Part shown: in pieces, positions 1 through 42,803 of the stretch
Numbering within the stretch: the stretch's first letter is position 1
Layout: every line of letters begins with the position of its first letter
Source: Bryobacterales bacterium
Lineage (GTDB): Bacteria; Acidobacteriota; Terriglobia; Bryobacterales; UBA6623
Length of the DNA: 64,000 nt
Direction: 5' to 3'
NCBI GenBank assembly: GCA_965237575.1
Contig: CBDEGI010000002.1
Span: 160,424 to 224,423 of the forward strand
Notes under the pieces: generated by a model
What the model was told of the DNA's origin: nothing
What the model saw: the letters and a program-made list of their open reading frames with translations, nothing else
Database searches by the model: none
Position numbers and translations under genes: made by a program

Positions 1-939
1 GATGCGACGACGCTGGAAGCGAACGCGGCGCTGCGTTCGATCGTGCGGCGGGCGAGCGGCGAGGGCTACGAAGAGTTTTTGCGACGACTCGCGGCGGAGG
101 CGGGGATCGAGACGCCGACCAGAGAGCAGTTGGCGAAGCTCGACAAGAAACGCAAAAAGAAAGGCTCGAACCAACAGTGGCGGCACCCGCACGACCCGGA
201 CGCCAAGATCACGAAGATGAAAGACGGGCGCACGCACCTGGCCCACAAGGCCGAGCAGGCGGTGGACCTGGAGACGGGGGCGGTGCTGGCGGTGACGCTG
301 GCCGCAGCCGACCGCGGCGACACGACCACGATCGCGGACACGATCACCGAAGCGGCCGAGCAAGTGGCTGCGGTGGCGGCGGACAACGAGGCCAACGAGA
401 AACTGGCGGCGGACGGGGTGCGGGAAGTGATCGCCGACAAAGGCTATCACTCCAATGCGGTGCTGACGGATTTGGCGGCGTTGGAGCTTCGTTCGTACCT
501 GAGTGAACCGGACCGCGGACGACGCTGCTGGCGGGACAAGCCACGAGAGCGCGAAGCGGTGTATGCGAACCGGCGGAGGATTCGGGGCGTGCGCGGCAAG
601 CGGCTGCTGCGGCAGCGAGGCGAGAAAGTGGAGCGAGTATTTGCGCACTTGTTCGAAACCGGTGGGATGCGACGGACACACCTGCGGGGCCATCCCAATA
701 TTCTCAAGCGACTGTTGATTCATGTGGGCGGATTCAACCTGTCGCTGGCGCTGCGCCGGAAACTGGGCGCGGGCACGCCGCGAGGGCAGAAAGCGGCAGA
801 AAAGGCCCTTGAGCGGCTCGGCAAACGCCTTTTCGAGCTGCTGAGGCCCCGCCGTTGGACTCGCCGCGACTTTCTGTGGCCGACGGCCCCGCGAGCCCTC
901 CGGATCGAGCCGTCCGACCCGCTCCCCCTCGCTGCTTGA
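1..939 (+). CDS. IS5/IS1182-type DDE transposase, C-terminal part (5' end outside the window)
   Basis: Frame 1 is open from nt 1 (DATTLEANAALRSIVRRASGEGYEEFL...) and runs into listed ORF 43..939. It contains KITKMKDGRTHLAHKAE, DKGYHSN and RGEKVERVFAHL..GGMRR..LRG..N..KR strings that I recognise from IS1182/IS5-group transposases. Stop TGA at 937-939. Confidence 0.8.
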   Translation, partial: DATTLEANAALRSIVRRASGEGYEEFLRRLAAEAGIETPTREQLAKLDKKRKKKGSNQQWRHPHDPDAKITKMKDGRTHLAHKAEQAVDLETGAVLAVTLAAADRGDTTTIADTITEAAEQVAAVAADNEANEKLAADGVREVIADKGYHSNAVLTDLAALELRSYLSEPDRGRRCWRDKPREREAVYANRRRIRGVRGKRLLRQRGEKVERVFAHLFETGGMRRTHLRGHPNILKRLLIHVGGFNLSLALRRKLGAGTPRGQKAAEKALERLGKRLFELLRPRRWTRRDFLWPTAPRALRIEPSDPLPLAA

Positions 940-973
940 CCCGGCTGGCAAACGCTACTTCTGCCACGGGCTG

Positions 974-1258
974 CTAGGCGGCGCGGCGTTCGTAGCGATG
1001 GTGCAGCCCGCCGACTTCCGGAAACTCCACCACTTTCCCAAGTTCCGAACCTTGCACCTCTCGCTCGATCGGCGCGTCCTTGGCCAACCCCAAGTGCGTT
1101 CTCGATCGATGGTAGTAGCCGAAATAGCTCGTCAAGATCCGTCTCAGATGTTTCCGGTTGAGCACAATGACATGGTCCAAACACTCCCGTCGGATCGATC
1201 CGATCAGACGCTCGGCGAAAGCATTCTGCCACGGACTTCGCGTGCCGTCAGCACTGCT
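974..1258 (-). pseudogene. rve (integrase-core) transposase, C-terminal remnant only
   Basis: Listed ORF 974..1180 begins at an internal TTG. Hand translation further upstream in the same frame gives ...TRSPWQNAFAERLIGSIRRECLDHVIVLNRKHLRRILTSYFGYYHRSRTHLGLAKDAP...GGLHHRYERRAA*. This is only the last ~95 residues of an rve-type integrase, and similarity fades upstream of ~1258. Confidence 0.7.
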
Positions 1259-1534
1259 ACCAGAATGCGCGAACGGCGGACCCGGCTGTCAAGGCCGCGT
1301 GAGCCTCAAGCTCCTCAATCTAAACGGCTACGTAGTTTTGGCGAGGCACAGCCGCCTTCGCGTGAGCTACGGCCTCGGCCAAGGGATTAGACACCGTAAA
1401 TCTGAGTAGTGTAGGTCAATCTCCTGATTGACTGCACGGCTTCGTCGGGCTTAGCGTCGCTGGTATAGGAAGGAATCTGTCCGCGGAGACGGCTGAAGGA
1501 CGAGATTCTCCGCCCGATTTTATCTCTGAGTGCG

Positions 1535-4414
1535 ATGAGATTCTTGAAGCTTCTCGCTGCTTCCTTGCTGGTCTGCGCCACGCCCGCAGCCGCGGCGGAG
1601 CCCCCCGTTCAGACCCTCTGCGTTCTCGACTTCAATCGGCTAGGCGACGATGCCAGCATGGACTGGCTCCAGGAAGGTCTCGCCGACATGATCATCGGCA
1701 CCATGAATGGGCTCGGCCCGTATCAGGTCATCGAGCGGCAATACCTGAAGGAGATCCTCCGGGAACACGGTTTGGCGGCGCACGGGCTGGTCGATAGGGA
1801 CACAGCGATTCGACAAGCCCGACTAGCCAAGGCCCAGCTCCTGCTGCTGGGAAGTTTTGCAAGGCAAGGCGATCGACTGACGATTCAAGCTCGGCTTATA
1901 AAAATCTCGGACCAGCAGATTCTTGCACGGGTCACTTGGACGGATCCCTACGCCAAAGTCCTCAGCGCTCCGCGGGACTTGAGCGAGAGACTTCTTGTGG
2001 CTCTGGGCAATCCTGTCGATCCGGCACAGCTTGAGGGCATCGAGAAAGAGATCCCGAGGACCATTGACGTTGCGAAATCCTACTACCAAGGCATCCGGGC
2101 CTTCGACAACGGCCACTACCCGGAAGCGTTGGCTCACTACCTCGACGCAGCCCGGCAAGCCGGCGATTTCATCAAGGTCTACCCGGCCGTACTCGAGATG
2201 TACTATCTGCTCGGCAGGAGCGAACATGCCGTCGTCTTTGCCCGGGAGCTGGCGCAACTCTACGAGAAGAGGGGTGACGTGCGAAGCGCTCTAGAGTACT
2301 ACTTCGCCGCGGCCGAGCAATGTTTGGACCCTTTGAACAATCACAGACCGGGGATCCGCCTGTTGAACGAGCTTATGCGCCTCGTGAAACAGCATGAACA
2401 CAAGACCAACGAGATGGAGGCGGCCAAGCGGTTCATCCTTGCCAGGATTGATGAGCTGCACGAAACGGGGAAATACGAATCGTTCGGAAAGATATTGGCG
2501 GATCGCAGTATTCGGTATCGGTTGTGGCCTGGTGATATTGAAGCCGAGCTGATGCGCAGAGCGGAAAAGCAAGCGCGCGGAGGGTACGCCGTATTCGAGG
2601 ACGGCCAGTGGGTTAAGCGATCCGTCCCCAAGCCCTCGGTGCTCATGTGGAAGATGCGTGCGCAGCACACCCTGGCCCGAGCGTATGCCCAGACGGGAAG
2701 AATCGAACTAGCACTGGATCAGTATCGGGAGCGGCTCGAAGAGTACGAATTCCTGACCGAACACCCCCTCTACGAAGGGAGGCATCGTGATCCCATCAGG
2801 ACGGAAGCCCATTTTATGTTGTTGCGCCACTACGCAAGAACGGGCAAGTTGGTCCGGGATCATGCTGTGAACAAGATCAACCGGCTCAATGTCGTCAGAG
2901 ATGGGCTTGTGTTCCGGAGAGACTTCGAGGACCGCGGCCTCGATCCGCGGGCGAGGGTGGCTTCTCGATACGAAGAGCGAGGCCACGAATACTTCGATTT
3001 CGCAGCCCCTTCAGGCTCGCAGGTCGATTCCGTCACGCTACGGGCAAAGATCGAGGGCATCGGGTCGTTCGGGTTCAACCTCCCGGAGCCTGCCGGGTGG
3101 CCCCCACAGTTTTCCTTTTCCAAACGGTTTGAGGACTTCAAATTCTCCAGGCGAGGCGACTACGAGCGGACGGTTGTTTTGCCCTCAGGGACTGAATTCT
3201 TTTCGATCGGTACGGGCTGGGGGCGTGGCTTGTATTCGAATACGCCGGTCGAGGCACTCTACGACAAACTATTCGGGCCGAAGGATGGCCCAGACATCGT
3301 GCGCTGGGAGGTGTCGTTCGCGGTTTCTCCCAAACACCGCGCGACCGTCGCGACAAGATTCGGTGTACCGACACAGCTCGACCCCGCGGTTCAACAACTG
3401 ATCGACCGTCACACGGCCGGCTGGGAAAGCAACTCCGTAATCCGAGAGGGACAGACCGCCTTCTATTCGGGCGATCCTTCCCTGGATGTGTACGCCGAGG
3501 ACTGGCTCGTATATTCAATCGATGGCGGTATTCAGATCTTCCACCAACGCGACCCGCGGCTCAAGATTGACGTACCCATCACGATCAACACCAGGGAACG
3601 GGAGTTCGATGCGTCCTTGGTCCGAACCCATGACGGCCGGTACGCGATGCTTTGGGCGCGTGGAACCAGCAAGAGAAACGCGAGGCGCTTCGTGGCGTTC
3701 TCCGCGGATTTGCTGCGCTGGGCGACGCCGCAGCGCATGGTTTTCGAAGAAGCACGGAAGAATCTGGGCTACACCTATGCACGGGCGGAGCCGCCCGAGC
3801 GGACCTACAACGTCGTCCCCAGCCGCCGGGGCTACGTGATGTTACTGGCACAGGGCTTCGTGCGGCACTCGAAGGACTTGAGGAGTTGGGGCCCACCGCA
3901 GAAAGTCATCCCGCAAGACCTCTATCGGAATCGTCTCGTGAAGACCCGGGATGGGACTTTGTGGGCGGTTTACGAGAACTCCTCGGACGAGCTTCAGCCC
4001 TACACGCCGGACGACTGGCTCCACGGCTATTTCGTGGTCGACGGCAAGCGGTACAGACACGTCACGGAGCTGCGCGTCAGCCGCAGTGCGGATGGCGTTC
4101 ACTGGGAGCGGGCCGGCAAAACCGTCTTTCCCGGTCAGCCCAGCGGCCTGTGGGCTTTCCCTGTTTCGGAAGGTCAGATTGGCATTGCCGTGGCCTTCAA
4201 CAATCTCTTCGCAAAGTGGTTGACGGCGTCGCGTTTTGGGGGGCTGCGATGGATCGAGACCGAACTCGAGGTCATGCATCAATCAGAGGAAGCGGAGTTC
4301 TTCGCTGCTGACACAGTACTCACTTGTATCCGTCCCGTCTTCGATTTCGAGAAGCAGAAGGCGATGCTCTTGGCCACAAGCTCCCGAGCGCTTTACGAGA
4401 GGTTCAAGCAGTAG
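1535..4414 (+). CDS. exported multidomain protein: CsgG/TolB-N-like module + TPR-like helical region + Asp-box beta-propeller-like C-terminus
   Basis: 959-aa ORF with signal peptide MRFLKLLAASLLVCATPAAAAEP. Residues ~26-140 carry the V-ERQ-L-EIL-E...LLLLGSF...RLTIQARL pattern shared with genes at 4415 and 6259. The middle is helical, with repeat-like YY/A-rich segments. The C-terminus has Asp-box-like SRSADGVHWE plus FSADLLRW and HSKDLRSW. Confidence 0.75.
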   Translation: MRFLKLLAASLLVCATPAAAAEPPVQTLCVLDFNRLGDDASMDWLQEGLADMIIGTMNGLGPYQVIERQYLKEILREHGLAAHGLVDRDTAIRQARLAKAQLLLLGSFARQGDRLTIQARLIKISDQQILARVTWTDPYAKVLSAPRDLSERLLVALGNPVDPAQLEGIEKEIPRTIDVAKSYYQGIRAFDNGHYPEALAHYLDAARQAGDFIKVYPAVLEMYYLLGRSEHAVVFARELAQLYEKRGDVRSALEYYFAAAEQCLDPLNNHRPGIRLLNELMRLVKQHEHKTNEMEAAKRFILARIDELHETGKYESFGKILADRSIRYRLWPGDIEAELMRRAEKQARGGYAVFEDGQWVKRSVPKPSVLMWKMRAQHTLARAYAQTGRIELALDQYRERLEEYEFLTEHPLYEGRHRDPIRTEAHFMLLRHYARTGKLVRDHAVNKINRLNVVRDGLVFRRDFEDRGLDPRARVASRYEERGHEYFDFAAPSGSQVDSVTLRAKIEGIGSFGFNLPEPAGWPPQFSFSKRFEDFKFSRRGDYERTVVLPSGTEFFSIGTGWGRGLYSNTPVEALYDKLFGPKDGPDIVRWEVSFAVSPKHRATVATRFGVPTQLDPAVQQLIDRHTAGWESNSVIREGQTAFYSGDPSLDVYAEDWLVYSIDGGIQIFHQRDPRLKIDVPITINTREREFDASLVRTHDGRYAMLWARGTSKRNARRFVAFSADLLRWATPQRMVFEEARKNLGYTYARAEPPERTYNVVPSRRGYVMLLAQGFVRHSKDLRSWGPPQKVIPQDLYRNRLVKTRDGTLWAVYENSSDELQPYTPDDWLHGYFVVDGKRYRHVTELRVSRSADGVHWERAGKTVFPGQPSGLWAFPVSEGQIGIAVAFNNLFAKWLTASRFGGLRWIETELEVMHQSEEAEFFAADTVLTCIRPVFDFEKQKAMLLATSSRALYERFKQ

Positions 4415-5326
4415 ATGAAGTATTGGTGGGTCCAGATTCGTGTGTTGTTGCTAACGGCGGTGGCGGCGCATCTTGTCTGGGCAAGTGGGGTCTGGACAAG
4501 TGAGGTCTGGGCAAGTGAGCGGCCCGCTCGCATCTGGTTCTTGCCGTTTGACAATCCTAGCGCCGATGCATCTTTGAAATACCTGGAAGAAGCGCTGCCG
4601 GCGCTGCTAGCCGTCGCCGTGTCTCAAACCGACGAACACGCCGTCGTGGACCGACAGCACTTGACCCAAGTCCTGGCCGAGCAGTCTCTGACTCTCGAGG
4701 GTCTGACATCGCCCAGTGCTAGGCACGATGTCGGGAGGCTCCTTGAGGCAACCGTGATCATTAGTGGGAGCTTTGTCAAGCAGGGCCAAGAGCTTCTCGT
4801 CATGATTCGGGCGGCCGATGTTGAAACAGGAATCGTCACCGCAACTGCGGAAGCTCGTGGTCCTGTCGGTCAACTCGGTCCGTTAGTGAGTAAGCTCTAC
4901 GGCAGATTAGCCCGGGACTTGGGCACGCGGCTACCCGATCTGCGCGCAGATCAGATCGACTCGGCGCCGCTGTCCAACCTGCATTTCATGCGCGGTCTTG
5001 GTTTCTATTTCAGCGCGCGCTACAACCAGGCCCTAGGGGAGTTCGTGCAGGCTGCCGAAGAGCAGGAGTTGAGCGTTATCTCCCGGCTGTGGCTGGCAAA
5101 CGCCTACCTGGCCCAAGACCAGTTTGGTCATGCCTATCTAGAGTTGAGCAAGCTGATGCGCAGTGGATCGAGCAACCTCCGCCAGGACGAGGTCAAAGCC
5201 AAGATCTGCGTGCCTGCGAGAAACACCTGGGCGCCGAGGACGAGTGAAGATCATCGAGGAGCTGGCCATGAGGAAGTGAAGATCATCGAGGAGCTGGCCA
5301 TGTTGCAAGCTCCCAGAAGGGAGTAG
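4415..5326 (+). CDS. exported protein, CsgG/TolB-N-like module + TPR-like tail (3' end disturbed by a 32-bp tandem duplication)
   Basis: The start ATG directly abuts the upstream stop (4414/4415). It has a signal-like N-terminus and a module IWFLPFDN...VVDRQHLTQVLAEQSL...VIISGSF...LLVMIRAADVETG paralogous to genes A and D. The C-terminal reading frame is uncertain (see repeat 5243-5302). Confidence 0.7.
   Translation: MKYWWVQIRVLLLTAVAAHLVWASGVWTSEVWASERPARIWFLPFDNPSADASLKYLEEALPALLAVAVSQTDEHAVVDRQHLTQVLAEQSLTLEGLTSPSARHDVGRLLEATVIISGSFVKQGQELLVMIRAADVETGIVTATAEARGPVGQLGPLVSKLYGRLARDLGTRLPDLRADQIDSAPLSNLHFMRGLGFYFSARYNQALGEFVQAAEEQELSVISRLWLANAYLAQDQFGHAYLELSKLMRSGSSNLRQDEVKAKICVPARNTWAPRTSEDHRGAGHEEVKIIEELAMLQAPRRE
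4475..4519 (+). repeat. 15-bp tandem repeat x3 inside the signal/N-terminal region of gene 4415-5326
   Basis: GTCTGGGCAAGTGGG / GTCTGGACAAGTGAG / GTCTGGGCAAGTGAG, read directly from the sequence. It encodes VWASG-VWTSE-VWASE. Confidence 0.9.
5243..5302 (+). repeat. tandem direct duplication, period 32 bp (28 bp identical)
   Basis: AGTGAAGATCATCGAGGAGCTGGCCATG occurs at 5243-5270 and again at 5275-5302, separated by AGGA. The period is not a multiple of 3. Confidence 0.9.
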
Positions 5327-5335
5327 ACGTGTCTC

Positions 5336-6262
5336 ATGCCGGCGCCTAACGGTAACAAGGCCACCCGACCGATTACTCCATTGGGATTCGCTCGGAGCGT
5401 CTCCTTGTCGCGGCATTTCGCGCGACCGGTCAGGGGAGTCGTCACCTTCACGCTCGCTTCCTGCTTGGCTCTGGGCTCGGAGGCGACCCCTGCGTCGTTT
5501 GGCGGTCCTGCCCTGGTCATCGCTCGGCCGAGCCGACCCGAGCCTCTCCGGCTCTTTGGAGGCCAGACCGCTGCAGTGCCCGTCGTCGTCCACGCGCCTG
5601 AGGTCGAAGGGCTCACCCTCCGCGCACAGTTGGTGCAGTTGACTTCCAACCTCTCGGTTCCCATCGTTGCCGAGCTCGAAGTTCCACTCCCGTCGAACCC
5701 TTCGCCGCATTCGGCGATCGAGCTTGATCTATCCGTCCCGCTTCCCGCAGTCCAACGAGAGACAAACTTCGAACTCCGGGTTCGGTCACGCCGAGGTCAC
5801 GACAAGCCTTGGCACGCGGCCGGCCGTATCGCGTTGCGGGTGTATCCCGGTGACCTGCTCGATTCGGTCCGCGTGTGGGCGAAGTCTCACCCGCTTCGCG
5901 TGAGGCACGGCAACGGGTCATTGCAGCGTTTCTTGCGCCAGCAGCGGATTCCCGTGGTCGCTGATGGCAAAGCTCAGGGTTTCGGTGACGGGCGGGGCGT
6001 ATCTCTCTTTGCCGGAGAGTCGGCGCTTCGCGAGCATGAACGCTTCCCTTTACCGGAGGACGAAGCGATTGTCCTGTTCACGGAACGGGAGTCGGAACCC
6101 CCGCGCCTTTTCATCGAGCGTACCGACCGAGGAACGACCGTGAGCGTCGAGATGCGCCTTCTCAACCGCTTGGCCACCGACCCTCTGGCGCAGAAGATCT
6201 TTCTTGAGGTGTTCCAACTCCTCCACGAGGAGAGACCGTCAGTTAAAGGAGATATTCAATGA
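5336..6262 (+). CDS. hypothetical exported protein, probable lipoprotein
   Basis: 308-aa ORF 9 nt after the upstream stop. An in-frame TTG at 5405 would give [20 protein letters not shown], a basic n-region, short h-region and canonical lipobox LASC. I recognise no family. Confidence 0.6.
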
Positions 6263-7233
6263 GATTACTGATTTTCGACCGAGCGCGTTGCGCTACGCCG
6301 TGGCTGTTAACACTTTCGCTCTTCTTAGCCCTTGGCCTTTCCGCGGCCGCAGCTCCACCCGCGGAGGAGCGACATCTGGCTATCGCAGTCCTCGATTTCC
6401 AGCCCGAGAGCAAAGATCTTGGGAAAACTGCGACGCAGGTGACGGAGCTCCTGATCTCCGAGCTCTCAAATCGTCCGAACTTGATTCTCGTGGAGCGCCA
6501 GCGACTGGGCGAAGTACTGAGTGAAATCGAGCTAGGCATCTCGGGCACCGTGCAGCCCGATACGGCGGCCAAGATCGGTGGCCTGATTGGTGCCAAGGCC
6601 CTCGTAACGGGACGGGTATTCTCCTCAGGTGACGACCTAGTTGCCATCGTGCGCACCATCGGCACAGAGACGGGCCGGGTCTATGCGGAAAGCGTAACCC
6701 TAGCGGCGGACGAGCCGGCCCACCGATACGCGGAGATTCTGGCCGAAAAGCTGTCCTCGCGTCTGAGTCGCTCCAAGGACAGTTTGCTCGCCCCTCCCAC
6801 GACGAGCGAAGACCGCATGCGGCGTCTCGCTCGGTTGGCGCGGGGAAAGACGCTACCCTCCCTGTCTGTCTTGATCCCGGAGCGCCATTCCGGTCGTGCC
6901 GCGATGGACCCGGCAGCCGAAACCGAGATCTCGCGGATTCTTAGGTCGCTCGGCTTCCCGCTGCTCGATCCCAACTCCAACGCCCGTCCGGATATCCGGA
7001 TCGCCGGAGAAGCGTTCAGCGAAGTGGGCTCCCGGCGGGGGAATCTGGTCTCGGCGAGCGGGCGTGTCGAGATCAAAGCAGTGGACCGCAAAACCCATGC
7101 TGTAGTTGCGGTGGATCGACAGACCGAGGTTGCCGTGGACCTGTCAGGAGAGATGGCCGGCAAAAAGGCGCTGCAACAGGCCTCGGCAAACCTCTCCGAG
7201 CGACTCGTGCGCGCTTTGCTACAGGCCCGCTAA
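6259..7233 (+). CDS. exported protein, CsgG/TolB-N-like module + second alpha/beta domain
   Basis: There is a 4-nt overlap with the upstream gene (ATGA). The signal peptide is ...[16 protein letters not shown] and the module is [10 protein letters not shown]...[18 protein letters not shown]...ALVTGRVF...[13 protein letters not shown]. The C-terminal half is (SVLIPERH...[15 protein letters not shown]...[11 protein letters not shown]...), family unknown. Confidence 0.75.
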
Positions 7234-7590
7234 TCCGATAGCTTTAATCCACGCCACAAACCCCGTTCCTGATGGGAACGGTCCCACTGCTGACAAGTGC
7301 CTATAGTGGTGTTCGGGCTATGTCGGGGCGGTTGCCGACCGTTCGCCCACCTCGTGCCGCCTGCCCCAAGTCTCCGGTTGTTTCCGAGTGGGCGACCACT
7401 CGTCCAGAACGGGGACGTAACGATGGCCAACGACTCTGGGTGGCCACTTCTACGGTTAGGGCGTTCTACTTCCTTCTGGTACGCCTGGCTCTACGTTGGC
7501 CGACAAGAACGAAGCCGCTGGGCGCGGCGGACGCCTGCGGCGTGGGTGGCAAGGGAAGAGTACAGTCGGTCGCAGAGAAGGAGGTTCTCT

Positions 7591-7821
7591 GTGACGATAC
7601 TCACCCAGCGGATGCGAGAAGAGCTCGTACGCCGCAACTACGCGGAAACAACCGTCGAGCAGTTTCGAGAATGCGCTCGAAAGAGGCTCGATCATCTCGG
7701 CCCGGACGACATGCGCCGCTACCAGGCGTACTTGCTCGAGAACAAGAAGCTCGTCGTCGGCACGGTCGTGCTGCACATCAGTGCGCTGCGATTCCTGTAT
7801 GTCAAGGTGCTTGGCCGGTAG
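7591..7821 (+). pseudogene. tyrosine recombinase, N-terminal SAM-like domain only (3' truncated)
   Basis: GTG at 7591 is preceded by AAGGAGG. VTILTQRMREELVRRNYAETTVEQF...LGPDDMRRYQAYLLENKKLVVGTVVLHISALRFLYVKVLGR* matches the N-terminal core-binding domain of phage-type integrases. The ORF stops at 7821 with no catalytic domain downstream. Confidence 0.7.
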
Positions 7822-8085
7822 GCCGGCGCACAGCAGTATTGGGCGTCCGTATCGGTTCATCACTGCTCAGCGAGCTCATCTCTGGACCGCTTGCTCACGC
7901 GCGCGACGTGGTCCTGGACCAGCGGCGGATGGGGACTAGCTTCCCGAGCACAGTCTCGAAGAAGACTTAAGGCTCTTATTGGCTGGATCGTTGGCATCCA
8001 ATGCTTGGTGCTTGTGTGTAGTTCGTATTCCTTTGGTACTTGACGGTTCTCGTGCAGCGCGTGCAGCGGGAGAGGAGGTGTTGCA

Positions 8086-9063
8086 GTGCGACAATTTTTC
8101 TGCTTAGTCGGCGCTTTCTATATGGCGAGCGTGTCTCCACAAGCATCCGCTCAGCCGGCGCGCTGGGAGACGCTTACCGATGAGGGGGTTCGAGCGCACG
8201 AGCAGGGACGCTACGTGGAGGCCGGAAGATTGCTGTCGGCTGCCCTTAAGGAAGCAGAGAACTTCAAACAGAACGACTCACGGGTTGTCGACAGCCTGAA
8301 CAATCTGGCCGAACTCTACTACACCCACGGGAAATACGATCAAGCGGAGCCGTTGTACAAACGCGCTCTGTCGATCGCCGAGCAGGTTCTGTCAGCGGAC
8401 GATCCCAAATTGGCCAGGAGCCTAAACAACCTGGGGACCCTCTACCAAACTCAGGGCAAGTACGTTGAGGCCGAGCCGCTTTACAGGCGGTCCTTGGCAA
8501 TATGGAAGCAGGCCCTGGGTCCGCAAAATCCCAGTGTGGCTACCAGCCTGAACAACCTCGCGGAACCTGTACAGCGTTCAGGGGAAATACGCTGAAGCAG
8601 AACCGTTGTACTGGCAGGCGTTAGCCATCGAGCAGAAGGCTCGGGGGTCAAACCATCCGGACGTAGCGTCGAGCCTCAACAACCTCGCGGAGTTTTACCG
8701 CGCTCAAGGAAACTACTCTGAAGCAGAGCCGTTGTACAAACGGGCCCTCTCAATCCTGGAGAAAGCCTATGAGCTGGAGCATCCAAGCGGAGCCACCGTT
8801 CTGAACAACTTGGCGCTTCTCTACCGGCATGGTGGTAGGTACGCGGAGGCTGAGGCACTGTACAAGCACTCTTTGGCGATCGCGGAGAGGAGATTGGGAC
8901 CCGAGCATCCTAGTGTGGCCTCTATGCTAACAATCTAGCGGAGCTGTACGACGCGCAGGGCAAGCAAGTTGAAGCGGAAGCACTGTACAAGCAATCTCTA
9001 GTTATTTCGGAAAAATTTTTGGGGCCCGAGCACCTGACGCCAAAGGTGTCCGACGTAACCTAG
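8086..9063 (+). pseudogene. TPR (kinesin-light-chain-like TPR_10/12) protein with two frameshifts
   Basis: The repeat unit LNNLAxLYxxQGKYxEAEPLYKRAL continues across both ORF breaks. At ~8567 an extra C changes NNLAE-LYSVQGKYAEAEPLY into NNLAEPVQRSGEIR*. At ~8928 a missing A turns SM-LNNLAELYDAQGK into SMLTI*. The last frame stops at 9061-9063. Confidence 0.85.
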
Positions 9064-9127
9064 AAGAATTGAGAAACAGCAGCCGTTAGAAAGCAGTGCG
9101 AGCCGATGAAGCGGCGACTTTACGCAA

Positions 9128-10444
9128 TCAGAAACTGATGTCCCACTGGGCGCGGTAACGGGTGGCGGCGAGATCGGGCTCTGAGGTCTGATCCAGTCCC
9201 AATCGCGAGACGTCGAAGGTGAGCTTATTGGCGTGGCCCCAGAAAAACCAGTTCACGGCAAACGTCAACTCCTCGAGCAGGTCGTCGGGCGCTGCCGTAT
9301 TGTAGTCGACGAAGGCATAGCGGACCGCGGTCTCCAGTTGCTTGGGAACCCACGGCGCAACGTAGTGGAAGAAGTAGCCAGCCTGCGCGTAGCTCCCCCG
9401 CAAGTGCGTGGTCGTGAGGTTCTTATTGTCGACGATCCGCTTCCAATGAAACTCTTGCTGGAGCGAGAACCCCTTGTACTTGAGCGCCGTTTCCTGAAGA
9501 TACTGGCGAAGCGAGTACTGTCCCGGCTCGCCGGGCTCGAACCCAATGATTTGACCTGCTCCCGAGCCGGAGAATCGGGTATAGCGACTGCGGTTGCTCA
9601 ACGTGCCGAAAGCCAGGCTCGCGGCGGGCGTTTCGTGGTACTCGATGTCACTTTGTGAGTACGGCAGGTCGCTCTTGAGGAAGTTCCACTGGTAGCGAGC
9701 CATGAGCATCGGTGTTCCGTCGCTCTCGTCCACCGAACTGATGCCGCGGCCCGTGCCGGTGAAGATCCCGGCGTAATAGTGGGAATCCCCCCAGGTACCC
9801 TTCATGAGGCGTCCCGTGAACATCGCGCCCGGTTGACGATCAATTGTGAAAGGACGGTTGACGATGGAGCGTTCTGCGAACTGCTGCTTACCGGAAGAAT
9901 CGACGCGCTCGCGGTTGTAGGTCGCCTTCCATTGGCCGACTTTCAACTGCAACCAATCCACGGGTGCGATCGTTATATCCCCGGTAAGGAAGCGGTTGTT
10001 GATCAAGTCGTGCTCGACGGCGTATTGGACCCAGGGCCGGAAGACCACGCCTTTCGCCTTAAACCGCGCCCGGCGAAAACGGAACTGTGTCAGCTCCTCC
10101 TTGTCGAACCCGGGGGCGTTGCGAGGCTCCGCATCGAAGGGATCGGAGTATCGGATCTGGCCACGCCAGTTAATTCTGGCGCTGTAGTTGCCGCGCCGGT
10201 CCTCGATGCCGAGCCCCTTGCGGCTGTACTTGATCTTGACTTTCCGACCCTCGTCGGCGGTGAGTGCTGACGGCTCTATGTCCCCTGCGTCACTCTTCTG
10301 AGCCTTTTTTTCAGACTGCCCGATTACCGGCGCGGCTTCGCCGGGCGGGTGCGAGCCCTGCGGCGCGCCGGCGGCGAGTGAGAGACTGGGAACGAGAAAG
10401 AGGATTCCCAATACTAGCGTCACACTACGGAATCGCCGCATCAT
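9128..10444 (-). CDS. phosphate-selective porin O/P family outer-membrane porin
   Basis: The signal peptide is MMRRFRSVTLVLGILFLVPSLSLAAG. RINWRGQIRY...FRFRRARFKAKG...LQLKVGQWKATYNRERVDSSGKQQFAERSIVNRPF matches the OprO/OprP-family pattern as I remember it, and the protein ends in ...WDISF. Confidence 0.7.
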   Translation of the reverse strand: MMRRFRSVTLVLGILFLVPSLSLAAGAPQGSHPPGEAAPVIGQSEKKAQKSDAGDIEPSALTADEGRKVKIKYSRKGLGIEDRRGNYSARINWRGQIRYSDPFDAEPRNAPGFDKEELTQFRFRRARFKAKGVVFRPWVQYAVEHDLINNRFLTGDITIAPVDWLQLKVGQWKATYNRERVDSSGKQQFAERSIVNRPFTIDRQPGAMFTGRLMKGTWGDSHYYAGIFTGTGRGISSVDESDGTPMLMARYQWNFLKSDLPYSQSDIEYHETPAASLAFGTLSNRSRYTRFSGSGAGQIIGFEPGEPGQYSLRQYLQETALKYKGFSLQQEFHWKRIVDNKNLTTTHLRGSYAQAGYFFHYVAPWVPKQLETAVRYAFVDYNTAAPDDLLEELTFAVNWFFWGHANKLTFDVSRLGLDQTSEPDLAATRYRAQWDISF

Positions 10445-10589
10445 GCAACCCCGCGGGAGCTTTGAGGTCTTCGCACACCCTTAGCGTAGCGGAGCCGTAA
10501 CGTTTCGCGGGTGAAGACGAGGTTAAGAAGGGGCTAAGTTCCCGTTAACCGCGCTGCGCGGGACGTAAGCGGCTTTCCAGACGAGGCGG

Positions 10590-11384
10590 GGCATTGTCAA
10601 GTTAATGACCCCGAGGCGGCGTTGCCTTGGAGTGTGCCCGGATTTCTCGTCTTCAGCAGGCACGCGTCGCCGTCTTCCAGTCAGTGAACGCTCGCTCCCG
10701 AAGGAGTCGATGGTGAATCGCTCTTAGATGATGACGTGCGACTCGGAACAGGTTCTGAATCGGGCCGTGGACCGAGAGGAATCGTTGAACCTGTGCCGCT
10801 GATTTGAAGCGACGCATCTGGCGTTCCTGCTCCCGGGTGTGTTGGTGGGAGACTTCCGCTCTGTTATTTTCGTATTGCCCGGTTCGATGGGTGACGGATG
10901 GGAAGATCTCTCGGTGCGCAGCCGGATAGCTTCGCAGTTTGTCGGTGACAAGTTGCAGCGGTGGCCTCTCCTGGCGCTTCAAGACCTTGCGAAAGAAGCG
11001 CTTGGCAGCTCTCTTGTCTCGGTGGCGTGTGACCAGGATATCGAGGACATCGCCATCCTGGTCCACCGCCCTCCAAAGATAGTGACGTTCGCCGCGGATC
11101 GTGATGAACACCTCGTCCACGTGCCAGATGTCTCCGAGGCGACCCTGTCGCCTCCGCAGAGTGCGGGCGTACTCCGGTCCGAACTTCCGGCACCAGGATC
11201 GAATGGCTTCGTAGGATACGGTGATGCCACGCTCCGCGAGAAGGTCCTCCACGTCGCGGAAGCTCAGCGTGAACCGATGGTACAGCCAAACGGCATGGCT
11301 GATGATCTCGGGTGGAAAGCGGTGGCGTCGATACAGTGATCCCATCCATCGATTGTCGCCGACCGCCGTTAACTTGACATTGCC
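10590..11384 (-). mobile_element. complete IS6-family insertion sequence (~795 bp)
   Basis: The terminal inverted repeats are GGCATTGTCAAGTTAA (10590-10605) and the reverse complement of 11369-11384, GGCAATGTCAAGTTAA (15/16). There is a single transposase ORF. The flanking 8-mers differ (CGAGGCGG vs TCTCCCTG), so there is no target-site duplication. Confidence 0.85.
10653..11345 (-). CDS. IS6-family DDE transposase
   Basis: A 230-aa ORF, MGSLYRRHRFPPEIISHAVWLYHRFTLSFRDVEDLLAERGI...WHVDEVFITIRGERHYLWRAVDQDGDVLDILV...VTDKLRSY...NNRAEVSHQHTR. The size and motifs are those of IS26/IS6-type transposases. Confidence 0.9.
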   Translation of the reverse strand: MGSLYRRHRFPPEIISHAVWLYHRFTLSFRDVEDLLAERGITVSYEAIRSWCRKFGPEYARTLRRRQGRLGDIWHVDEVFITIRGERHYLWRAVDQDGDVLDILVTRHRDKRAAKRFFRKVLKRQERPPLQLVTDKLRSYPAAHREIFPSVTHRTGQYENNRAEVSHQHTREQERQMRRFKSAAQVQRFLSVHGPIQNLFRVARHHLRAIHHRLLRERAFTDWKTATRAC

Positions 11385-11710
11385 TCTCCCTGGCTTTTGC
11401 GATTGGAGTGACAGTGTCTTGCTGCTCGGCCTTTGGCAGGTCCCTACCTTGGGTGATGAGTTCGCCTACGAGTTCGTTGCGCTTGCGGCGTTGGGCCTCG
11501 ATTGCCTCGGTTGGTCTCTGGCCGGCGACCTGCCTTTTGCGCTTCTTGCCCTCCCACCACTCCAGAAAAAAATATCCGGGGCGCTTGTCCCAGACGTAGC
11601 GCTCACCGTTCTTCTTGAGTGAAATGAACCGCCAGCTGTGGCGTCGGCGTGGCGACGCCGCTTGACTCGCGAATCTTCTTGATGATCCGAACTCGCTTGA
11701 GGTGGGCCAC
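11385..11710 (-). pseudogene. phage-type integrase, N-terminal stub (frameshifted, then cut by IS6)
   Basis: GTG at 11710 follows GGGAG. VAHLKRVRIIKKIRESSG... shifts frame into ...WRFISLKKNGERYVWDKRPGYFFLEWWEGKKRKRQVAGQRPTEAIEAQRRKRNELVGELI..., which resembles the arm-binding N-terminus of integrases. The reading frame runs straight into the IS6 inverted repeat at 11384. Nothing integrase-like lies on the other side of the IS. Confidence 0.6.
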
Positions 11711-11805
11711 GGTGGGCTCCCTTGGTGTCTATTTTCGGTGAATCACAGACACCATCATGGTAGCGAGTTCTGTAATCGATTGCAACTAAAAAGGTTAGGA
11801 AAGAT

Positions 11806-11879
11806 TGGCTGGGAGGCAGGGATTCGAACCCCGATAAACAGATCCAGAATCTGCCGTGTTACCGTTACACTACCTCCCA
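11806..11879 (-). tRNA. tRNA-Gln (anticodon CUG), CCA encoded
   Basis: Folded by hand: acceptor TGGGAGG/CCTCCCA, U8, D stem GTGT/ACAC, anticodon stem GCAGA/TCTGT with loop TTCTGGA, T arm CGGGG-TTCGAAT-CCCTG, discriminator G, CCA. Confidence 0.9.
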
Positions 11880-11992
11880 GCAGAGGGGCAACTCGAATTC
11901 AGTATAAGTGGGTTTTTGGAAGGGCCGCAACCGGGTGCCACGGTGCTGCGCGGCGCGGATACGACGCCGAGGCCGGACTCTTAGCTCCCCGG

Positions 11993-13120
11993 TTAGAGCA
12001 ACCGGAAGTTCACTTCGATCGTCGCGGCGACCTTGACCGGCTTGCGCTCTTTCATGCCCGGGGCGAAGCGCCACTGTTGCACGGCCTCGACGGCCTTCTC
12101 GTCCAAGCCAAGTCCCAGGCTGCGGATGATCTTGACGTTGTGGGCGCGGCCGTCCTCCCACACCTGCACCGAGAGCACGACCGTGCCTTGGTACTTGGCC
12201 TTGCGGGCTTCTTCGGAGTACTCGGGCTCGACCTTCTTGATCAGGCGCGGAGCGCTGACACCGCCGCCGACGCGGAAGATGCCGCCCCCTGCACCACCGC
12301 CCTCACCCGGACCGTAGCCGCCGCCCCTTCCCGGACCGACGCCGGTGCCCCTCCCGCTGCCGATACCGCCGCCCGTGCCGGGTCCGGCCGAGGGAGGGCC
12401 GATCTTGCCCAGCGGGTCGCCGAAGACCGCCATGTCTACATTGGGAACCTGGAGCTGAGGCGGCCCCAGCAGCGTGGGCTCCACGGCCAGCTTCGGATTC
12501 TTGTTCATGATCACCGGGGTCGGAGGCGCGAACTGCTTCAAAGAAAACCGCGGCAGCTTGCCCTTGCTCTCCGGAAGCGGGGAGTTCTGTCCGCCGCCGC
12601 CGCCGCCCGACTTGCCGGAGTTCGGCGCAAACATCTTGATGTCAGCGAGGTAGGGCGAGATGTCAACGGGAACGATCAACGTCACCGATCCCTTCAGCGA
12701 GTCTTGGATCACCGGAGCCGCAAACACTGTAAACAGAAGCACCACAATCGTAACGTGAACCGCGAACGACGAGAGCACGCCCTTTTGCTTGTTGTCGTAT
12801 GCGCCCCAGATGCTCTTCACTCGAACCGGCCGCGACGTCAGCCGCAGGGGCGGCAGCTTCCTGTCCCTCACGATCGTTTGAAGGTTATTCTTGAGCGTCC
12901 GGAACCACGGTTCGTGGACCGACTCGAGGATCTTCGGGCCAAGTTCCTCGTCGCCCTCTTGATGAGGCCGAAACGTCGGCAGCGGCGGAAGCTCCTCTTT
13001 CTTCGAGAACAGCTCCGTTACCTGCCGCTTGAACGAGACGTACCACGGCTCGTAGATCGACTCTATGAGCAGCGAACCGAGAGCGGACTCACCTGTGTCT
13101 GTTGCCTGCCGAGCACTCAT
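11993..13120 (-). CDS. TonB-family energy transducer
   Basis: The C-terminal TonB domain is ...PRLIKKVEPEYSEEARKAKYQGTVVLSVQVWEDGRAHNVKIIRSLGLGLDEKAVEAVQQWRFAPG..., preceded by a Gly/Pro-rich linker, one TM segment and repeated LPPL..TSRPV motifs. I prefer ATG 13120 (MSARQATD...) to the ORF-track start 13270. Confidence 0.8.
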   Translation of the reverse strand: MSARQATDTGESALGSLLIESIYEPWYVSFKRQVTELFSKKEELPPLPTFRPHQEGDEELGPKILESVHEPWFRTLKNNLQTIVRDRKLPPLRLTSRPVRVKSIWGAYDNKQKGVLSSFAVHVTIVVLLFTVFAAPVIQDSLKGSVTLIVPVDISPYLADIKMFAPNSGKSGGGGGGQNSPLPESKGKLPRFSLKQFAPPTPVIMNKNPKLAVEPTLLGPPQLQVPNVDMAVFGDPLGKIGPPSAGPGTGGGIGSGRGTGVGPGRGGGYGPGEGGGAGGGIFRVGGGVSAPRLIKKVEPEYSEEARKAKYQGTVVLSVQVWEDGRAHNVKIIRSLGLGLDEKAVEAVQQWRFAPGMKERKPVKVAATIEVNFRLL

Positions 13121-13501
13121 GCTGATCGCGTCCCTGGTATCCAAATCTGAAGATAGATCTGTTAAATAGACGAAGCGCCAGATGCCCGCGTTTCGGAAAA
13201 ATTCCGAACCGGTGCGGGGCCGCGCCTGACGGCAAACCCGCCCAGTATCATGGTAGCGATCGCGTGCCACGATCGCAAGACGGTTTCTCTACATCTATGT
13301 TAACCTATTCGGCCAGGACTACCCGTGTCTTGATCGGAGTTCGCGGATGCAACCGCTCCGCTACCCGCGCCTGGCTCGATCCCCGATGGCACTCCCCTCC
13401 GACGGTGCCGCAAGGCCCGGCAACCCGGCACTGCGCTAGACTGAGGCGAGCCGGGCTCGCGTAAACCGCGATCCACCACCCTGCCCGGCAGCACGACCAC
13501 C

Positions 13502-14074
13502 ATGCCCGCCCCCGAGGATCTCACCGCGGCGCCCAAGAACGCTTCGCCGGGGATGACCCCCTATCTGGTACTCGCGGCCGCCATCGTCCTGCTTGACCGC
13601 GCTACCAAGGCCGCCGTCGCGTCGGGAATGCAGCTCTATGAGAGCCGCGTCATCGTGTCGGACTTCTTCAACTTGGTCCATACGCGCAACACCGGCATCG
13701 CCTTCAGCTTGTTTTCCGACAGTTCGCCCGTCGTCAAGGGCGTGATTCTGCCTGTTGTCTCGACCCTGGCCGTGATCGGCATCGCCTATCTGTTCTGGCG
13801 CTCGGGTGCCGTCGAGCCGCGAACCCGAATCGGTCTCACGCTCATCCTCGCCGGGGCCGCCGGAAACCTCTACGACCGCTTCGCCTACGGCTATGTCACT
13901 GATTTCTTGGACTTTTACCTAGCCTCCCATCACTGGCCGAGCTTCAACGTGGCCGACAGCTCGATCACGATCGGCGCCGGCCTGCTGCTGCTCGACTCAT
14001 TCCGGCGCGCGCCGAACCCGGAGGGCAGCCCGGAAAGCAACCCCGACAGCCGCTCCGAAAGGGAGGCGGCCTAG
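13502..14074 (+). CDS. lspA: lipoprotein signal peptidase II
   Basis: LDRATK, FNLVHTRNTGIAFSLF, GAAGNLYDRFAYGYVTDFLDF and WPSFNVADSSITIG are the conserved LspA blocks. An alternative start is ATG 13553. Confidence 0.9.
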   Translation: MPAPEDLTAAPKNASPGMTPYLVLAAAIVLLDRATKAAVASGMQLYESRVIVSDFFNLVHTRNTGIAFSLFSDSSPVVKGVILPVVSTLAVIGIAYLFWRSGAVEPRTRIGLTLILAGAAGNLYDRFAYGYVTDFLDFYLASHHWPSFNVADSSITIGAGLLLLDSFRRAPNPEGSPESNPDSRSEREAA

Positions 14075-14081
14075 GCCCTCC

Positions 14082-14888
14082 ATGTGTCCGCTGCTGTTTT
14101 CAGTCGGGCCCCTGTCGATCCCGACCTATGGCGTCTTGGTCGCGATCGGCTTCCTGGTGGGTCTGTATCTGGTCGGGCGTTTGTCCAAGAGGGCGGGGCT
14201 TGATCCGGACAGGATGACCAACCTGGGGCTCTGGGTGGTCCTGGCCGCCATCATTGGGGCCAAGGTGTTCATGGTGTTCGCGGACTTTGGAACGTATTGG
14301 CACGACCCCGGGCGCCTGTTCTCCCTTAGCTTACTTCGGGCCGGCGGTATCTTTTACGGTGGGCTTCTCGGGGCCTTGGGAGTAGCGGTCTGGTACTCGC
14401 GCAAGCACGGTTTGCCCGGTCTCCAGACCGCCGACATCTTCGCCCCCGCTGTCGCCGTGGGACACTCGATCGGCCGCCTGGGTTGCTTTGCCGCCGGTTG
14501 TTGCTGGGGCAAGCCGACCTCGCTGCCCTGGGGTGTGGCCTTCACCGATCCCGCGGCTCACGACTTCGTGGGCGTGCCGCTCAACGTCCACCTGCACCCC
14601 ACGCAGCTTTACGAGGCGGGCGGCACCCTAGCGGTCGGACTGCTGCTACTGCGATTGATCGGCCGGCCGCACCGCCCGGGCGCCGTCTTCGCCTGGTACC
14701 TAGTGCTGTACTCCAGCTTCCGCCTGGGCGTCGAGTTTCTGCGGGCCGAAACCTCCCGCAACTTCCCTTTCGACGGGCCGCTCAGCGTGACGCAATGGGT
14801 CGCGGTGGTGTTGGTCGTGGCCGGAGCGGCCCTGCTGCTGTGGCACTCGTCCCAGCCGGCCGCTTCCCCGGCCCGCCAAACGAGCTAG
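14082..14888 (+). CDS. lgt: prolipoprotein diacylglyceryl transferase
   Basis: YGVLVAIGFLVG, GHSIGRLGCFAAGCCWGKPTSLPWGVAF and HPTQLYEA are conserved Lgt strings, and the size (268 aa) fits. Confidence 0.9.
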   Translation: MCPLLFSVGPLSIPTYGVLVAIGFLVGLYLVGRLSKRAGLDPDRMTNLGLWVVLAAIIGAKVFMVFADFGTYWHDPGRLFSLSLLRAGGIFYGGLLGALGVAVWYSRKHGLPGLQTADIFAPAVAVGHSIGRLGCFAAGCCWGKPTSLPWGVAFTDPAAHDFVGVPLNVHLHPTQLYEAGGTLAVGLLLLRLIGRPHRPGAVFAWYLVLYSSFRLGVEFLRAETSRNFPFDGPLSVTQWVAVVLVVAGAALLLWHSSQPAASPARQTS

Positions 14889-14892
14889 GACG

Positions 14893-17502: not shown

Positions 17503-17503
17503 A

Positions 17504-17533
17504 ATGTAGGGCACGGCATGCCGTGCCGTGCCC
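17504..17533. repeat. intergenic palindromic element, copy A (inverted orientation, slightly degenerate)
   Basis: ATGTAG-GGCACGGCATGCCGTGCC-GTGCCC lies immediately after the polA stop. It has the same core as the copies at 33288 and 46869. Confidence 0.85.
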
Positions 17534-17615
17534 GCGCCGCGAATCGCCTGCCGACCCCGCACGCGCAGCGGTCCTCCGAACGACGCCTTGCTAAAATACA
17601 AACACCCGCCATTCA

Positions 17616-17691
17616 GCCACGGTAGCTCAGTTGGTAGAGCAGCGGTTTCGTAAACCGCAGGTCGTCGGTTCGAGTCCGACCCGTGGCTCCA
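17616..17691 (+). tRNA. tRNA-Thr (anticodon CGU), CCA encoded
   Basis: Folded by hand: acceptor GCCACGG/CCGTGGC, D arm GCTC-AGTTGGTA-GAGC, anticodon arm GCGGT-TTCGTAA-ACCGC, T arm GTCGG-TTCGAGT-CCGAC, then TCCA. Confidence 0.9.
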
Positions 17692-33133: not shown

Positions 33134-33287
33134 CGTCCAGCCTCCTAGCCCGGCGCTACGGGTCTCTCACTGCTCTTGCCAGCCGACGCCGATCGAATTG
33201 AATCTTCGCATGCTTGCACCGCTTCTGCTTGGGCCGTTTCCTCAACTCAACCTAGGAGGCTCGCAAGGTGCAGTGATCTTGGAAGAC

Positions 33288-42745: not shown

Positions 42746-42803
42746 GGCGGCACGGAAGTCAAAGACCTTGTCGAGATAGGCCTCGAAGCGGCGGCGGCGC
42801 AGG

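Follow-up and report, generated by a model that had tools for sequence, protein, structure and literature searches.

In the 64-kb window analysed here (the whole stretch of DNA, 64,000 nucleotides, from a soil Bryobacterales bacterium with a genome of ~9 Mb), the 3′ end of tRNA-Gln(CTG) probably bears the scar left when an IS6-mediated rearrangement deleted, or moved elsewhere, the body of an integrative element; this scar is now fused to a mosaic plasticity zone. In the scenario that we favor, an element of an Acidobacteriota-specific tyrosine-integrase family would have entered the tRNA 3′ end, and only its attL edge would survive, as a 95-nt spacer with an inverted repeat plus the first ~108 integrase codons. 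An IS6 element would then have taken away or displaced the remainder of the integrase gene and the element body, most likely by IS26-style intramolecular replicative transposition (adjacent deletion), which would leave the IS without a target-site duplication and would fuse the scar to DNA that now starts with a native-looking porin gene. The other 10 kb, down to nt 1 and past it as far as uvrC, would be a mosaic plasticity zone produced by separate events, its parts being a horizontally mobile four-gene module, recombinase, rve and IS1182-like stubs, and a decaying TPR gene. We infer both the deletion mechanism and this order of events.

The tRNA-Gln boundary and the integrase stub

The tRNA-Gln(CTG) gene lies on the minus strand at 11806-11879, where the original prediction had placed it as tRNA-Gln(CUG); both ARAGORN and Rfam (64.8 bits) find it, and the Rfam scan returned nothing besides two tRNAs. 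The genes on the far side of the tRNA (TonB_C, lspA, lgt and polA) are core, as had been claimed, and are conserved in two related genomes. Alignments to the relatives L001 (94% nucleotide identity) and L002 (78%) reach 11805 and end at the tRNA-Gln 3′ end, beyond which each of these genomes carries different DNA; both lack the stub and spacer described below, and an integrase of the stub's family is absent from both. From these alignments, the 3′ end of tRNA-Gln(CTG) appears to be the point of integration as well as the end of synteny with relatives, and the integrase insertion is apparently lineage-specific. An integrase C-terminal fragment near the L001 tRNA-Gln was considered as the missing half and rejected: it shows no similarity to the full-length family member P0149, converges on a tRNA-Val and is of another family. 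Among the relatives, no empty site flanked by matching DNA was found, since in this lineage conserved gene order is interrupted every few kilobases: the arrangement around uvrC and tRNA-Gln differs in each genome examined, and in relatives sought through UvrC (90-91% identity) the right flanks are unrelated to the present locus and to one another.

The integrase gene starts with a GTG at 11710, 95 nt past the tRNA 3′ end and on the same strand, just as predicted, and what is left of it is an N-terminal pseudogene of ~108 codons (11385-11710, minus strand), recognized through its homologues, a profile search and tblastn. The product of this ORF corresponds to the N-terminal part of tyrosine integrases of ~400 aa: the stub has 69 homologues, the profile search yields full-length members of 366-414 aa, and in tblastn the stub is 57-60% identical to P0147 and P0149. 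The frameshift noted earlier is real and corresponds in the alignment to a 19-nt insertion at ~11636-11654, which is private to the window and absent from the three other assemblies of the locus. The truncation by IS6 falls exactly at 11384/11385 and, as the original prediction had it, no integrase sequence follows on the other side of the IS; indeed, the rest of the family sequence is nowhere in the 64-kb window. The catalytic domain of the family (R...HxxR...Y), whose motifs can be read by inspection in P0149, was not found in the window, leaving residues ~1-108 alone, and those frameshifted.

Between the stub and the tRNA is a 95-nt spacer (11711-11805, minus strand), which we assign to the element side (attL arm) because the same spacing and repeat are seen in L049, L035 and L038. 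It holds a conserved inverted repeat just ahead of the integrase start, with arms TGGTGTCTG (11746-11754) and TAGACACCA (11723-11731); a stem is predicted here, with an energy that is not unusual (z = -1.15). The repeat, TGGTGTCTG...TAGACACCAAGG, precedes the start codon in all tRNA-linked homologues. The closest homologue of the stub, in L049 (83% amino acid identity), starts 94 nt beyond a tRNA-Gln(CTG) whose genomic surroundings are unrelated and whose upstream flank is different, and more distant homologues start exactly 95 nt after tRNA-Ser(GGA) (L035/L036) and tRNA-Ser(CGA) (L038-L040). This set of loci documents an Acidobacteriota family of tyrosine integrases at tRNA-Gln and tRNA-Ser 3′ ends, where the spacer is fixed at 95 nt and the inverted repeat is conserved. 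The placement of homologues 94-95 nt after tRNAs also bears out the earlier view of the tRNA-Gln/integrase pair as the scar of a tRNA-targeting element, and the pair is the attL-side scar of such an integrative element, cut by IS6.

A tyrosine-integrase gene directly at a tRNA 3′ end is a mark of genomic islands. In Enterobacteria, tRNA-integrating islands and integrative mobilizable elements with P4-int-type integrases sit at selC, leuX or ssrA. The present locus resembles these in its integrase gene, which follows the tRNA 3′ end immediately and has the same orientation, in the synteny break exactly at the tRNA end, and in the use of several tRNAs (Gln, Ser) by one integrase family. It differs in keeping only 108 integrase codons of ~400, in having no attR, excisionase or backbone genes, and in that the N-terminal arm-type domain of its integrase family matches no Pfam or NCBIfam model.

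The IS6 element and its junction

The insertion sequence that cuts the integrase is 795 bp long (10590-11384, minus strand), with its transposase at 10653-11345 (minus strand). The transposase scores 217 bits against NCBIfam transpos_IS6 (NF033587; cutoff 125) and matches Pfam DDE_Tnp_IS240 (PF13610) with E = 1.6e-40, and the overall length and terminal inverted repeats (GGCAnTGTCAAGTTAA) are those of an IS6 element of about 0.8 kb. Its ends read GGCATTGTCAAGTTAA at 10590 and GGCAATGTCAAGTTAA (minus strand) at 11384, a pairing for which 0.03 matches are expected by chance. There is no 8-bp target-site duplication: the flanks, CAGGGAGA and CCGCCTCG (minus strand), differ. We therefore attribute the joining of the left-side DNA to the stub to a later rearrangement; the missing duplication indicates such a secondary event, not exclusion from the IS6 family. 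The same junction is present in all four assemblies of the locus (the window, L033, L034 and L051), and the pre-rearrangement state is therefore lacking.

When members of the IS26/IS6 family transpose replicatively within one molecule, they are known to produce adjacent deletions and rearrangements. Like the products of IS26 deletions, the present junction consists of a complete IS6 element with inverted repeats and no 8-bp duplication, adjoining a truncated gene whose remainder is gone. Unlike them, it lies in an Acidobacteriota chromosome rather than on a resistance plasmid, has no second flanking copy, and reflects an event that we infer.

The window's only other IS6 sequence is an inverted 88-nt end fragment (95% identical) at 44686-44773, 33 kb off and across the tRNA, so that an IS6-bounded composite transposon lacks its second copy. 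The fragment does imply that more than one copy has existed and, together with the missing target-site duplication and the strongly scrambled synteny among close relatives, it speaks for a different outcome, in which homologous recombination or inversion between two IS6 copies split the island and the element body was displaced elsewhere in the genome instead of being deleted. We regard this as distinctly unlikely: the fragment adjoins receiver-domain and HsdM-like remnants rather than integrase sequence and, among the matches listed, the sole other place with an identical IS6 transposase is L051, at the same junction. The lone integrase-like match near the fragment (P0147 residues 119-155 against 44752-44859 by tblastn, E = 0.001) was rejected as a continuation of the integrase and judged to be chance, as it is off-frame of the HsdM-like remnant and runs into IS6-derived sequence.

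The DNA left of the IS6 element

The genes that the original prediction had named left of the IS6 element were recovered, with a qualification for the last of them. Adjoining the IS is an intact phosphate-selective-type porin gene (Porin_O_P; 9128-10444, minus strand; Pfam E = 9.6e-13), whose codon usage is native (GC3 0.77; log-likelihood per codon -1.03, inside the core range). Next to it is the TPR gene (8086-~9060, plus strand), a pseudogene with two frameshifts, as claimed, recognized by its TPR_12/TPR_10 matches in Pfam, by three-frame translation and by the repeat families D1 and D2; the PADLOC defence-system models picked up only a generic TPR match and a weak PrimPol match of 18 bits in the cargo, on this gene. 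The second recombinase stub, placed earlier at 7591-7821, spans ~7606-7821 (plus strand) and is an N-terminal SAM-like domain alone (Phage_int_SAM_4, Pfam E = 1.7e-8): the catalytic domain is absent downstream, and the stub is indeed unrelated to the first, showing no match to the tRNA-linked integrase family. The rve remnant (974-1252, minus strand) is the C-terminal part of an IS3/IS481-type transposase (Pfam rve_3 E = 5.5e-11; NCBIfam IS3/IS481). At the left edge, the transposase said to be of IS1182 type (1-939, plus strand) does run off the window, its 363-aa ORF beginning 153 nt before position 1 in L033, but its family can be given only as IS1182-like. It is a degenerate IS1182/IS5-like DDE transposase (Pfam DDE_Tnp_1 and DDE_Tnp_1_6) whose best NCBIfam match, transpos_IS1182, spans positions 93-342 of the 488-position profile and, at 99 bits, stays below the cutoff of 270, with DUF772 at E = 0.034, where assignment to IS1182 takes both the cutoff and an intact DUF772.

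The predicted cluster of four exported genes is present at 1535-7233 (1535-4414, 4415-5326, 5336-6262 and 6259-7233), and CsgG/FlgO-like N-terminal domains are found by Pfam in three of the four products. The cluster belongs to a discrete 5.9-kb module (1309-7266, plus strand) with sharp borders at 1309/1380 and 7266: over exactly this interval it is 93% identical in nucleotide sequence to a copy in L044/L045 that lies between IS256/ISL3 and a group II intron. No terminal repeats were found at the module borders. This separate context shows the module to be independent of the tRNA-Gln element.

The original prediction had taken all of 1-11879 as one degraded island, that is, an old insertion running from tRNA-Gln leftwards through nt 1 and decayed in place, with IS6 as a later simple insertion accompanied by local erosion. 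The tRNA-integrase arrangement is the classic one, the region is dense in transposase and recombinase remnants, and for the majority of genes in 1-11.8 kb GC3 is lower and codon usage atypical. The 959-aa protein of the module is, moreover, 73-75% identical in amino acid sequence to proteins of MAGs whose source labels place them in other lineages (for the 73% match, Methylomirabilales according to NCBI), roughly as high as for UvrC from different Bryobacterales genera (77-79%), a level suggestive of horizontal transfer. We nevertheless find that the extent of the proposed island is not supported, and rate this reading as unlikely. An att repeat was defined as at least 13 nt of the tRNA-Gln 3′ end, GGTTCGAATCCCTGCCTCCCAGCCA. 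The 25-nt 3′ end has no match with up to three mismatches in the window, and the far repeat that the prediction called for is represented only by chance matches of 9-12 nt in the window and a further 8.4 kb to its left (recovered from L033/L034, so that the inspected sequence is the window plus about 8 kb extra); attR is thus not found within about 20 kb. In the 8.4-kb flank, core uvrC is reached ~2.7 kb outside the window, and a relative shares a conserved block there; an island could not extend far past the window. attR could sit further off if rearrangements moved it. Nor does the one-island reading agree well with an IS6 element that lacks a target-site duplication and has nothing of the integrase beyond it, with a native-looking porin gene directly adjoining the IS, or with a module that is mobile or maintained on its own between IS elements elsewhere. 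Finally, backbone genes of the type seen in L050, a near-complete relative of the element with TIR, PRiA4, primase and ArdC-N genes beside the integrase, are missing: none (primase, ArdC-N, TIR and similar) was found in 1-11384.

The compositional comparison with the core gives a mixed picture: median GC3 is 0.70 in 1-11.8 kb versus 0.78 (Mann-Whitney p = 0.004), with atypical codon usage in the four-gene cluster, the TPR gene, the SAM_4 ORF and IS6, but nothing unusual in the porin gene or in the IS1182-like one. Low GC3 left of the IS6 element also fits leftover distal cargo of an island.

Composition bears as well on the opposite reading, that there is no island cargo here at all, the four-gene cluster, TPR gene and porin gene being vertically inherited and their odd composition a consequence of weak expression or of biases particular to single genes. 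GC3 is just as low in several genes elsewhere in the window (29092-30075 and 36304-37074, for example), the porin composition is typical, and the 93% identity of the module to L044/L045 matches the 94% core identity to L001, which would allow for vertical descent with scrambling of the flanks. This we consider very unlikely: vertical descent sits poorly with a 959-aa protein that is so similar in lineages labelled otherwise when UvrC already falls to 77-79% within Bryobacterales, and IS elements or an intron flank the module in each of the two contexts observed. The scar-and-mosaic explanation given at the outset remains the one that we prefer. Because synteny breaks every few kilobases and cargo modules have separate histories, a tRNA plus an integrase stub is, in transposon-rich Bryobacterales genomes, a poor basis for assigning the neighboring kilobases to one island.

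The integrase family at other loci

The integrase family is Acidobacteriota-specific, and a scan of IMG/VR found no relatives of it and therefore no sign of a prophage. All six loci of the family examined have only defective or truncated copies beside intact spacers, and most of the 523 database matches are shorter than 200 aa. The stubs P0006, P0013 and P0046 end within ~8 codons of one another, and the defects lie elsewhere in other loci; a pseudo-att site at these shared ends was considered and rejected, as they have no similarity to tRNA 3′ ends. It is conceivable, although we think it extremely unlikely, that the stub and the upstream inverted repeat form a retained unit encoding a putative arm-type DNA-binding protein that acts by itself and sits on tRNA att sites. 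This would explain both the six defective loci with intact spacers and the predominance of matches below 200 aa and, if true, the retained stub could give immunity against re-integration or local regulation, for example.

Fusellovirus (SSV-type) integrases, in which attP lies inside int, are split upon integration, and the recurrence of integrase fragments near tRNA genes is shared with the present family. Membership in this type was rejected: the tRNA end is 95 nt upstream of the start codon and outside the ORF, the truncation points are unlike tRNA, and the positions of the defects vary by locus.

A closer comparison is offered by Ca. Solibacter usitatus, which we take to be a relative within the Bryobacterales. 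The genome of strain Ellin6076 contains 123 genes of mobile elements, and tRNA genes and phage integrase genes occur in its 16 degenerate candidate islands (PMC3174227). Like the present genome it is large and has many integrase, transposase and IS genes, and its islands combine tRNA genes, below-average GC and decay (PMC3174227). Those islands are defined by composition only (PMC3174227), whereas the present analysis resolves to the nucleotide an integrase family, its distance from the tRNA and the truncation by IS6; at the present locus the one-island reading fails the att test. The locus has little significance beyond annotation, except that it would be a clean case of IS6 erasing integrative elements in transposon-rich Bryobacterales. 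A patchwork of mobile DNA of this kind is ordinary for Bryobacterales genomes, and IS and MITE activity is ongoing in the same population.

An integrase stub at tRNA-Gln

ARAGORN and Rfam both place a tRNA-Gln(CTG) on the minus strand at 11806-11879, and a phage-type tyrosine integrase stub (about 108 N-terminal codons, 11385-11710) begins on that strand with a GTG at 11710, 95 nt past the tRNA, as the original prediction had stated. The frame from this GTG is broken after about 25 codons and picks up in another frame owing to a 19-nt insertion (~11636-11654), which is private to the window's strain, since the other assemblies of the locus (L033, L034 and L051) lack it. The frame then meets a complete IS6-family element at 11384/11385, confirming the predicted frameshift and truncation. 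Also as predicted, no sequence of the stub's integrase family was found past the IS6 element; nor was any found elsewhere in the window.

The repaired 108-aa sequence has no match of its own in Pfam or NCBIfam. It has 69 homologues, the longer of which run on into a SAM-like core-binding domain, and an exhaustive profile search of the family gave 523 matches, including full-length proteins of 366-414 aa; in one of these (P0149), the R...HxxR...Y motifs of tyrosine recombinases are readable in the sequence. Most database matches are shorter than 200 aa, a count confounded by fragmentary metagenome contigs, and no relatives were found among IMG/VR viral contigs.

For the closest homologue of the stub (P0001, 83%), the distance from a tRNA-Gln(CTG) to the start is 94 nt, and the DNA upstream of that tRNA is unrelated to the window; two other homologues start 95 nt past tRNA-Ser(GGA) (P0013) and tRNA-Ser(CGA) (P0046). 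In all four loci, the spacer carries an inverted repeat, TGGTGTCTG-N14-17-TAGACACCAAGG, right before the start codon. Because the homologues keep the tRNA context, the 94-95-nt distance and the spacer repeat, the tRNA-integrase pair seen here represents the attL edge of a family of integrative elements rather than a chance adjacency. The nearly complete relative L050 has, behind a frameshifted integrase, genes for TIR, PRiA4, primase and ArdC-N, a cargo that marks it as an integrative, plasmid-like element. What novelty there is here is modest and limited to the integrase subfamily: its unmodelled N-terminal domain, its fixed 95-nt spacer with the conserved inverted repeat, and its tRNA-Gln and tRNA-Ser sites.

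All six integrase-family loci examined (L035, L038, L042, L049, L050 and window 11385-11710) hold defective copies, the defects being truncation at 175 or 188 aa, an in-frame stop, frameshifts and the IS6 cut; these copies are probably what is left of an old integration wave that is now decaying. In L038, the tRNA-Ser(CGA) 3′ end recurs, as an exact 14-nt match (12071-12084), 6.2 kb further downstream; this repeat is a plausible candidate for the attR of a small island, now degraded, that comprises an integrase stub, Pyr_redox_2, OsmC, PALP and AhpC.

The IS6 junction and the DNA to its left

The IS6 element is 795 bp long (10590-11384), with inverted repeats GGCAnTGTCAAGTTAA at 10590 and 11384 and a transposase (10653-11345) scoring 217 bits against a cutoff of 125. 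Its flanking 8 bp are unequal (CAGGGAGA on one side, CCGCCTCG on the other), giving no target-site duplication; with no integrase beyond it either, the DNA to its left must have been joined to the stub by rearrangement. An element of the integrase family would first have integrated at tRNA-Gln; intramolecular replicative transposition of IS6, or recombination with another IS6 copy, may then have deleted integrase codons ~109-400 together with the element body, or moved them elsewhere, leaving the IS without a duplication. Such loss of adjacent DNA without duplication is well established for IS26. As four out of four assemblies of the locus already share the same junction, we infer IS6-mediated removal or displacement here rather than observing it.

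A second IS6 end fragment (88 nt, 44686-44773, inverted, 95% identical to the full copy) shows that further copies existed; no integrase sequence was found in its flanks. This fragment is part of a second graveyard of mobile DNA (41000-45400), which also contains an IS4-like transposase (41555-42745), pieces of transposases around 43400-43860, an HsdM-like remnant (44822-45136) and, immediately left of 44686, a receiver-domain gene that has been truncated.

The original prediction took all of 1-11879 to be a single degraded island, and Pfam and NCBIfam did recover its listed contents: a Porin_O_P gene between IS6 and the TPR gene, the TPR_12 gene with two frameshifts, a second recombinase stub (Phage_int_SAM_4), the four-gene exported cluster and an rve_3 C-terminal remnant (974-1252, minus strand). 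The transposase at the left window edge is indeed IS1182-like, but its match is sub-threshold. Composition likewise agreed only in part: the four-gene cluster, SAM_4 ORF, TPR gene and IS6 are atypical (GC3 0.67-0.72 vs a median of 0.78; p = 0.004), but the porin, the first gene left of IS6, is typical of the genome in both GC3 (0.77) and codon usage.

The largest product of the four-gene cluster (1309-7266, plus strand), 959 aa long, has a CsgG/FlgO-like N-terminus and matches to TPR models; two smaller products have CsgG-like N-terminal domains (three of the four genes in all, by Pfam/NCBIfam), and the remaining one has no domain match. The cluster behaves as a separate unit, because a 93% identical block, over exactly 1309/1380-7266, stands in another context in the database contigs L044/L045, with IS256/ISL3 transposases on one side and a group II intron on the other. 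The next-closest homologues of the largest protein are 73-75% identical, about the UvrC similarity between Bryobacterales genera; one is from a MAG labelled Methylomirabilales by NCBI, and a 63% homologue is from a MAG labelled Vicinamibacterales. At least 76 homologues are on record, some in MAGs source-labelled Acidobacteria, Vicinamibacterales or Methylomirabilales. In L046, a Methylomirabilales-labelled contig, genes 1 and 2 have homologues, and in the gene after them (426 aa) no similarity to module genes 3 and 4 was detected. An imperfect 32-nt tandem duplication (~5243-5302), private to the window, alters the C-terminus of the second gene (4415-5326), giving 303 aa vs 291 aa in L032-L034.

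The predicted far att repeat was not found. The 25-nt tRNA-Gln 3′ end, allowing up to 3 mismatches, has no second copy in the window, and the window plus 8.4 kb of additional left flank, supplied by ENA metagenome contigs, gave only 9-12-nt chance matches. That flank encodes a DHOR protein, a cupredoxin, a porin, uvrC and phoD, then a transposase running into the window; as uvrC and the DHOR-cupredoxin-porin block are conserved in a relative, an island could not reach more than some 2.7 kb past the window's left edge. None of the L050 backbone genes is present left of the stub. The original prediction is thus partly supported: the tRNA anchor and the IS6 truncation hold, and a single island spanning 1-11879 does not, given the missing att repeat, the nearby uvrC, the secondary IS6 junction without duplication, the typical porin, the independent module and the missing backbone. 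The four-gene module, second recombinase stub, rve and IS1182-like remnants and decaying TPR gene would have been gathered independently.

The locus is a familiar tRNA-linked integrase scar in a transposon-rich genome, here of a member of the Bryobacterales (Acidobacteriota). Published work on Ca. Solibacter usitatus had already recorded 123 mobile-element genes in it, along with sixteen candidate islands, degenerate and containing genes for tRNAs and phage integrases (PMC3174227).

Synteny with relatives

The TonB_C, LspA, Lgt and PolA genes on the other side of the tRNA are core, as predicted, and the block is conserved in two related MAGs; the TonB gene is 96% identical in L001 (OZ253444.1, an 8.96-Mb chromosome) and 80% in L002. 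Nucleotide alignment (94% and 78%, respectively) stops at 11805, one base past the tRNA 3′ end. Past it, L001 has an unrelated integrase C-terminal fragment converging on tRNA-Val, then IS481 and IS630 elements and ispG, whereas L002 has no integrase there but a glycosidase-like gene and then one for a TonB-dependent receptor; the stub is thus specific to the window's lineage. The conserved block (11806-17691: tRNA-Gln, tonB, lspA, lgt, polA, tRNA-Thr) has a tRNA gene at either end. At the tRNA-Thr end, too, homology to L001 and L002 is lost no more than about 40 nt from the tRNA, which makes both tRNA genes markers of rearrangement breakpoints. Between tonB and lspA, L001 carries some 3.5 kb that the window lacks.

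The synteny comparison thus places a break at the tRNA, with relatives lacking the stub, but no empty site could be reconstructed in the compared relatives on the tRNA-Gln or uvrC side. In relatives whose UvrC is 90-91% identical, the genes to its right are unrelated. Because synteny blocks in this group span only a few kb, the break alone says little about island content.

Continuing mobility at the locus

Three ENA metagenome contigs (L032, L033, L034) encode a 959-aa protein identical to the window's. Of these, L033 aligns collinearly (99.6% over 5270-14448), L034 has the same arrangement except for MITE insertions, and L032 departs inside gene 4, at window 7056. A MITE of about 245 bp (terminal inverted repeats GGGGTATGCACTTGACTCCCGA, 9-bp target duplication) sits in gene 4 at window 6930-6938 (L032:15369-15621, L034:15368-15621) and in the TPR gene at 8924-8932 (L034:17646-17898); as these sites are filled in some haplotypes and empty in the window, it is currently active in the population. 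A second element, MITE-like and some 280 bp long, with ends GGGGTATCCACTTGACTCAGGT (window 35152-35430, L034:6381-6660) breaks phoD in L034 as a 99%-identical copy and has an 83% copy in L032, where an IS481-like element also lies near phoD. With two MITE families polymorphic, this IS481-like element and the L032 breakpoint in gene 4, mobile-DNA activity continues in the population. A 33-nt repeat that contains a palindrome (GGGCACGGCATGCCGTGCCC; window 33281-33313 and 46862-46894, L001:1175-1208) could be a REP-like intergenic element.
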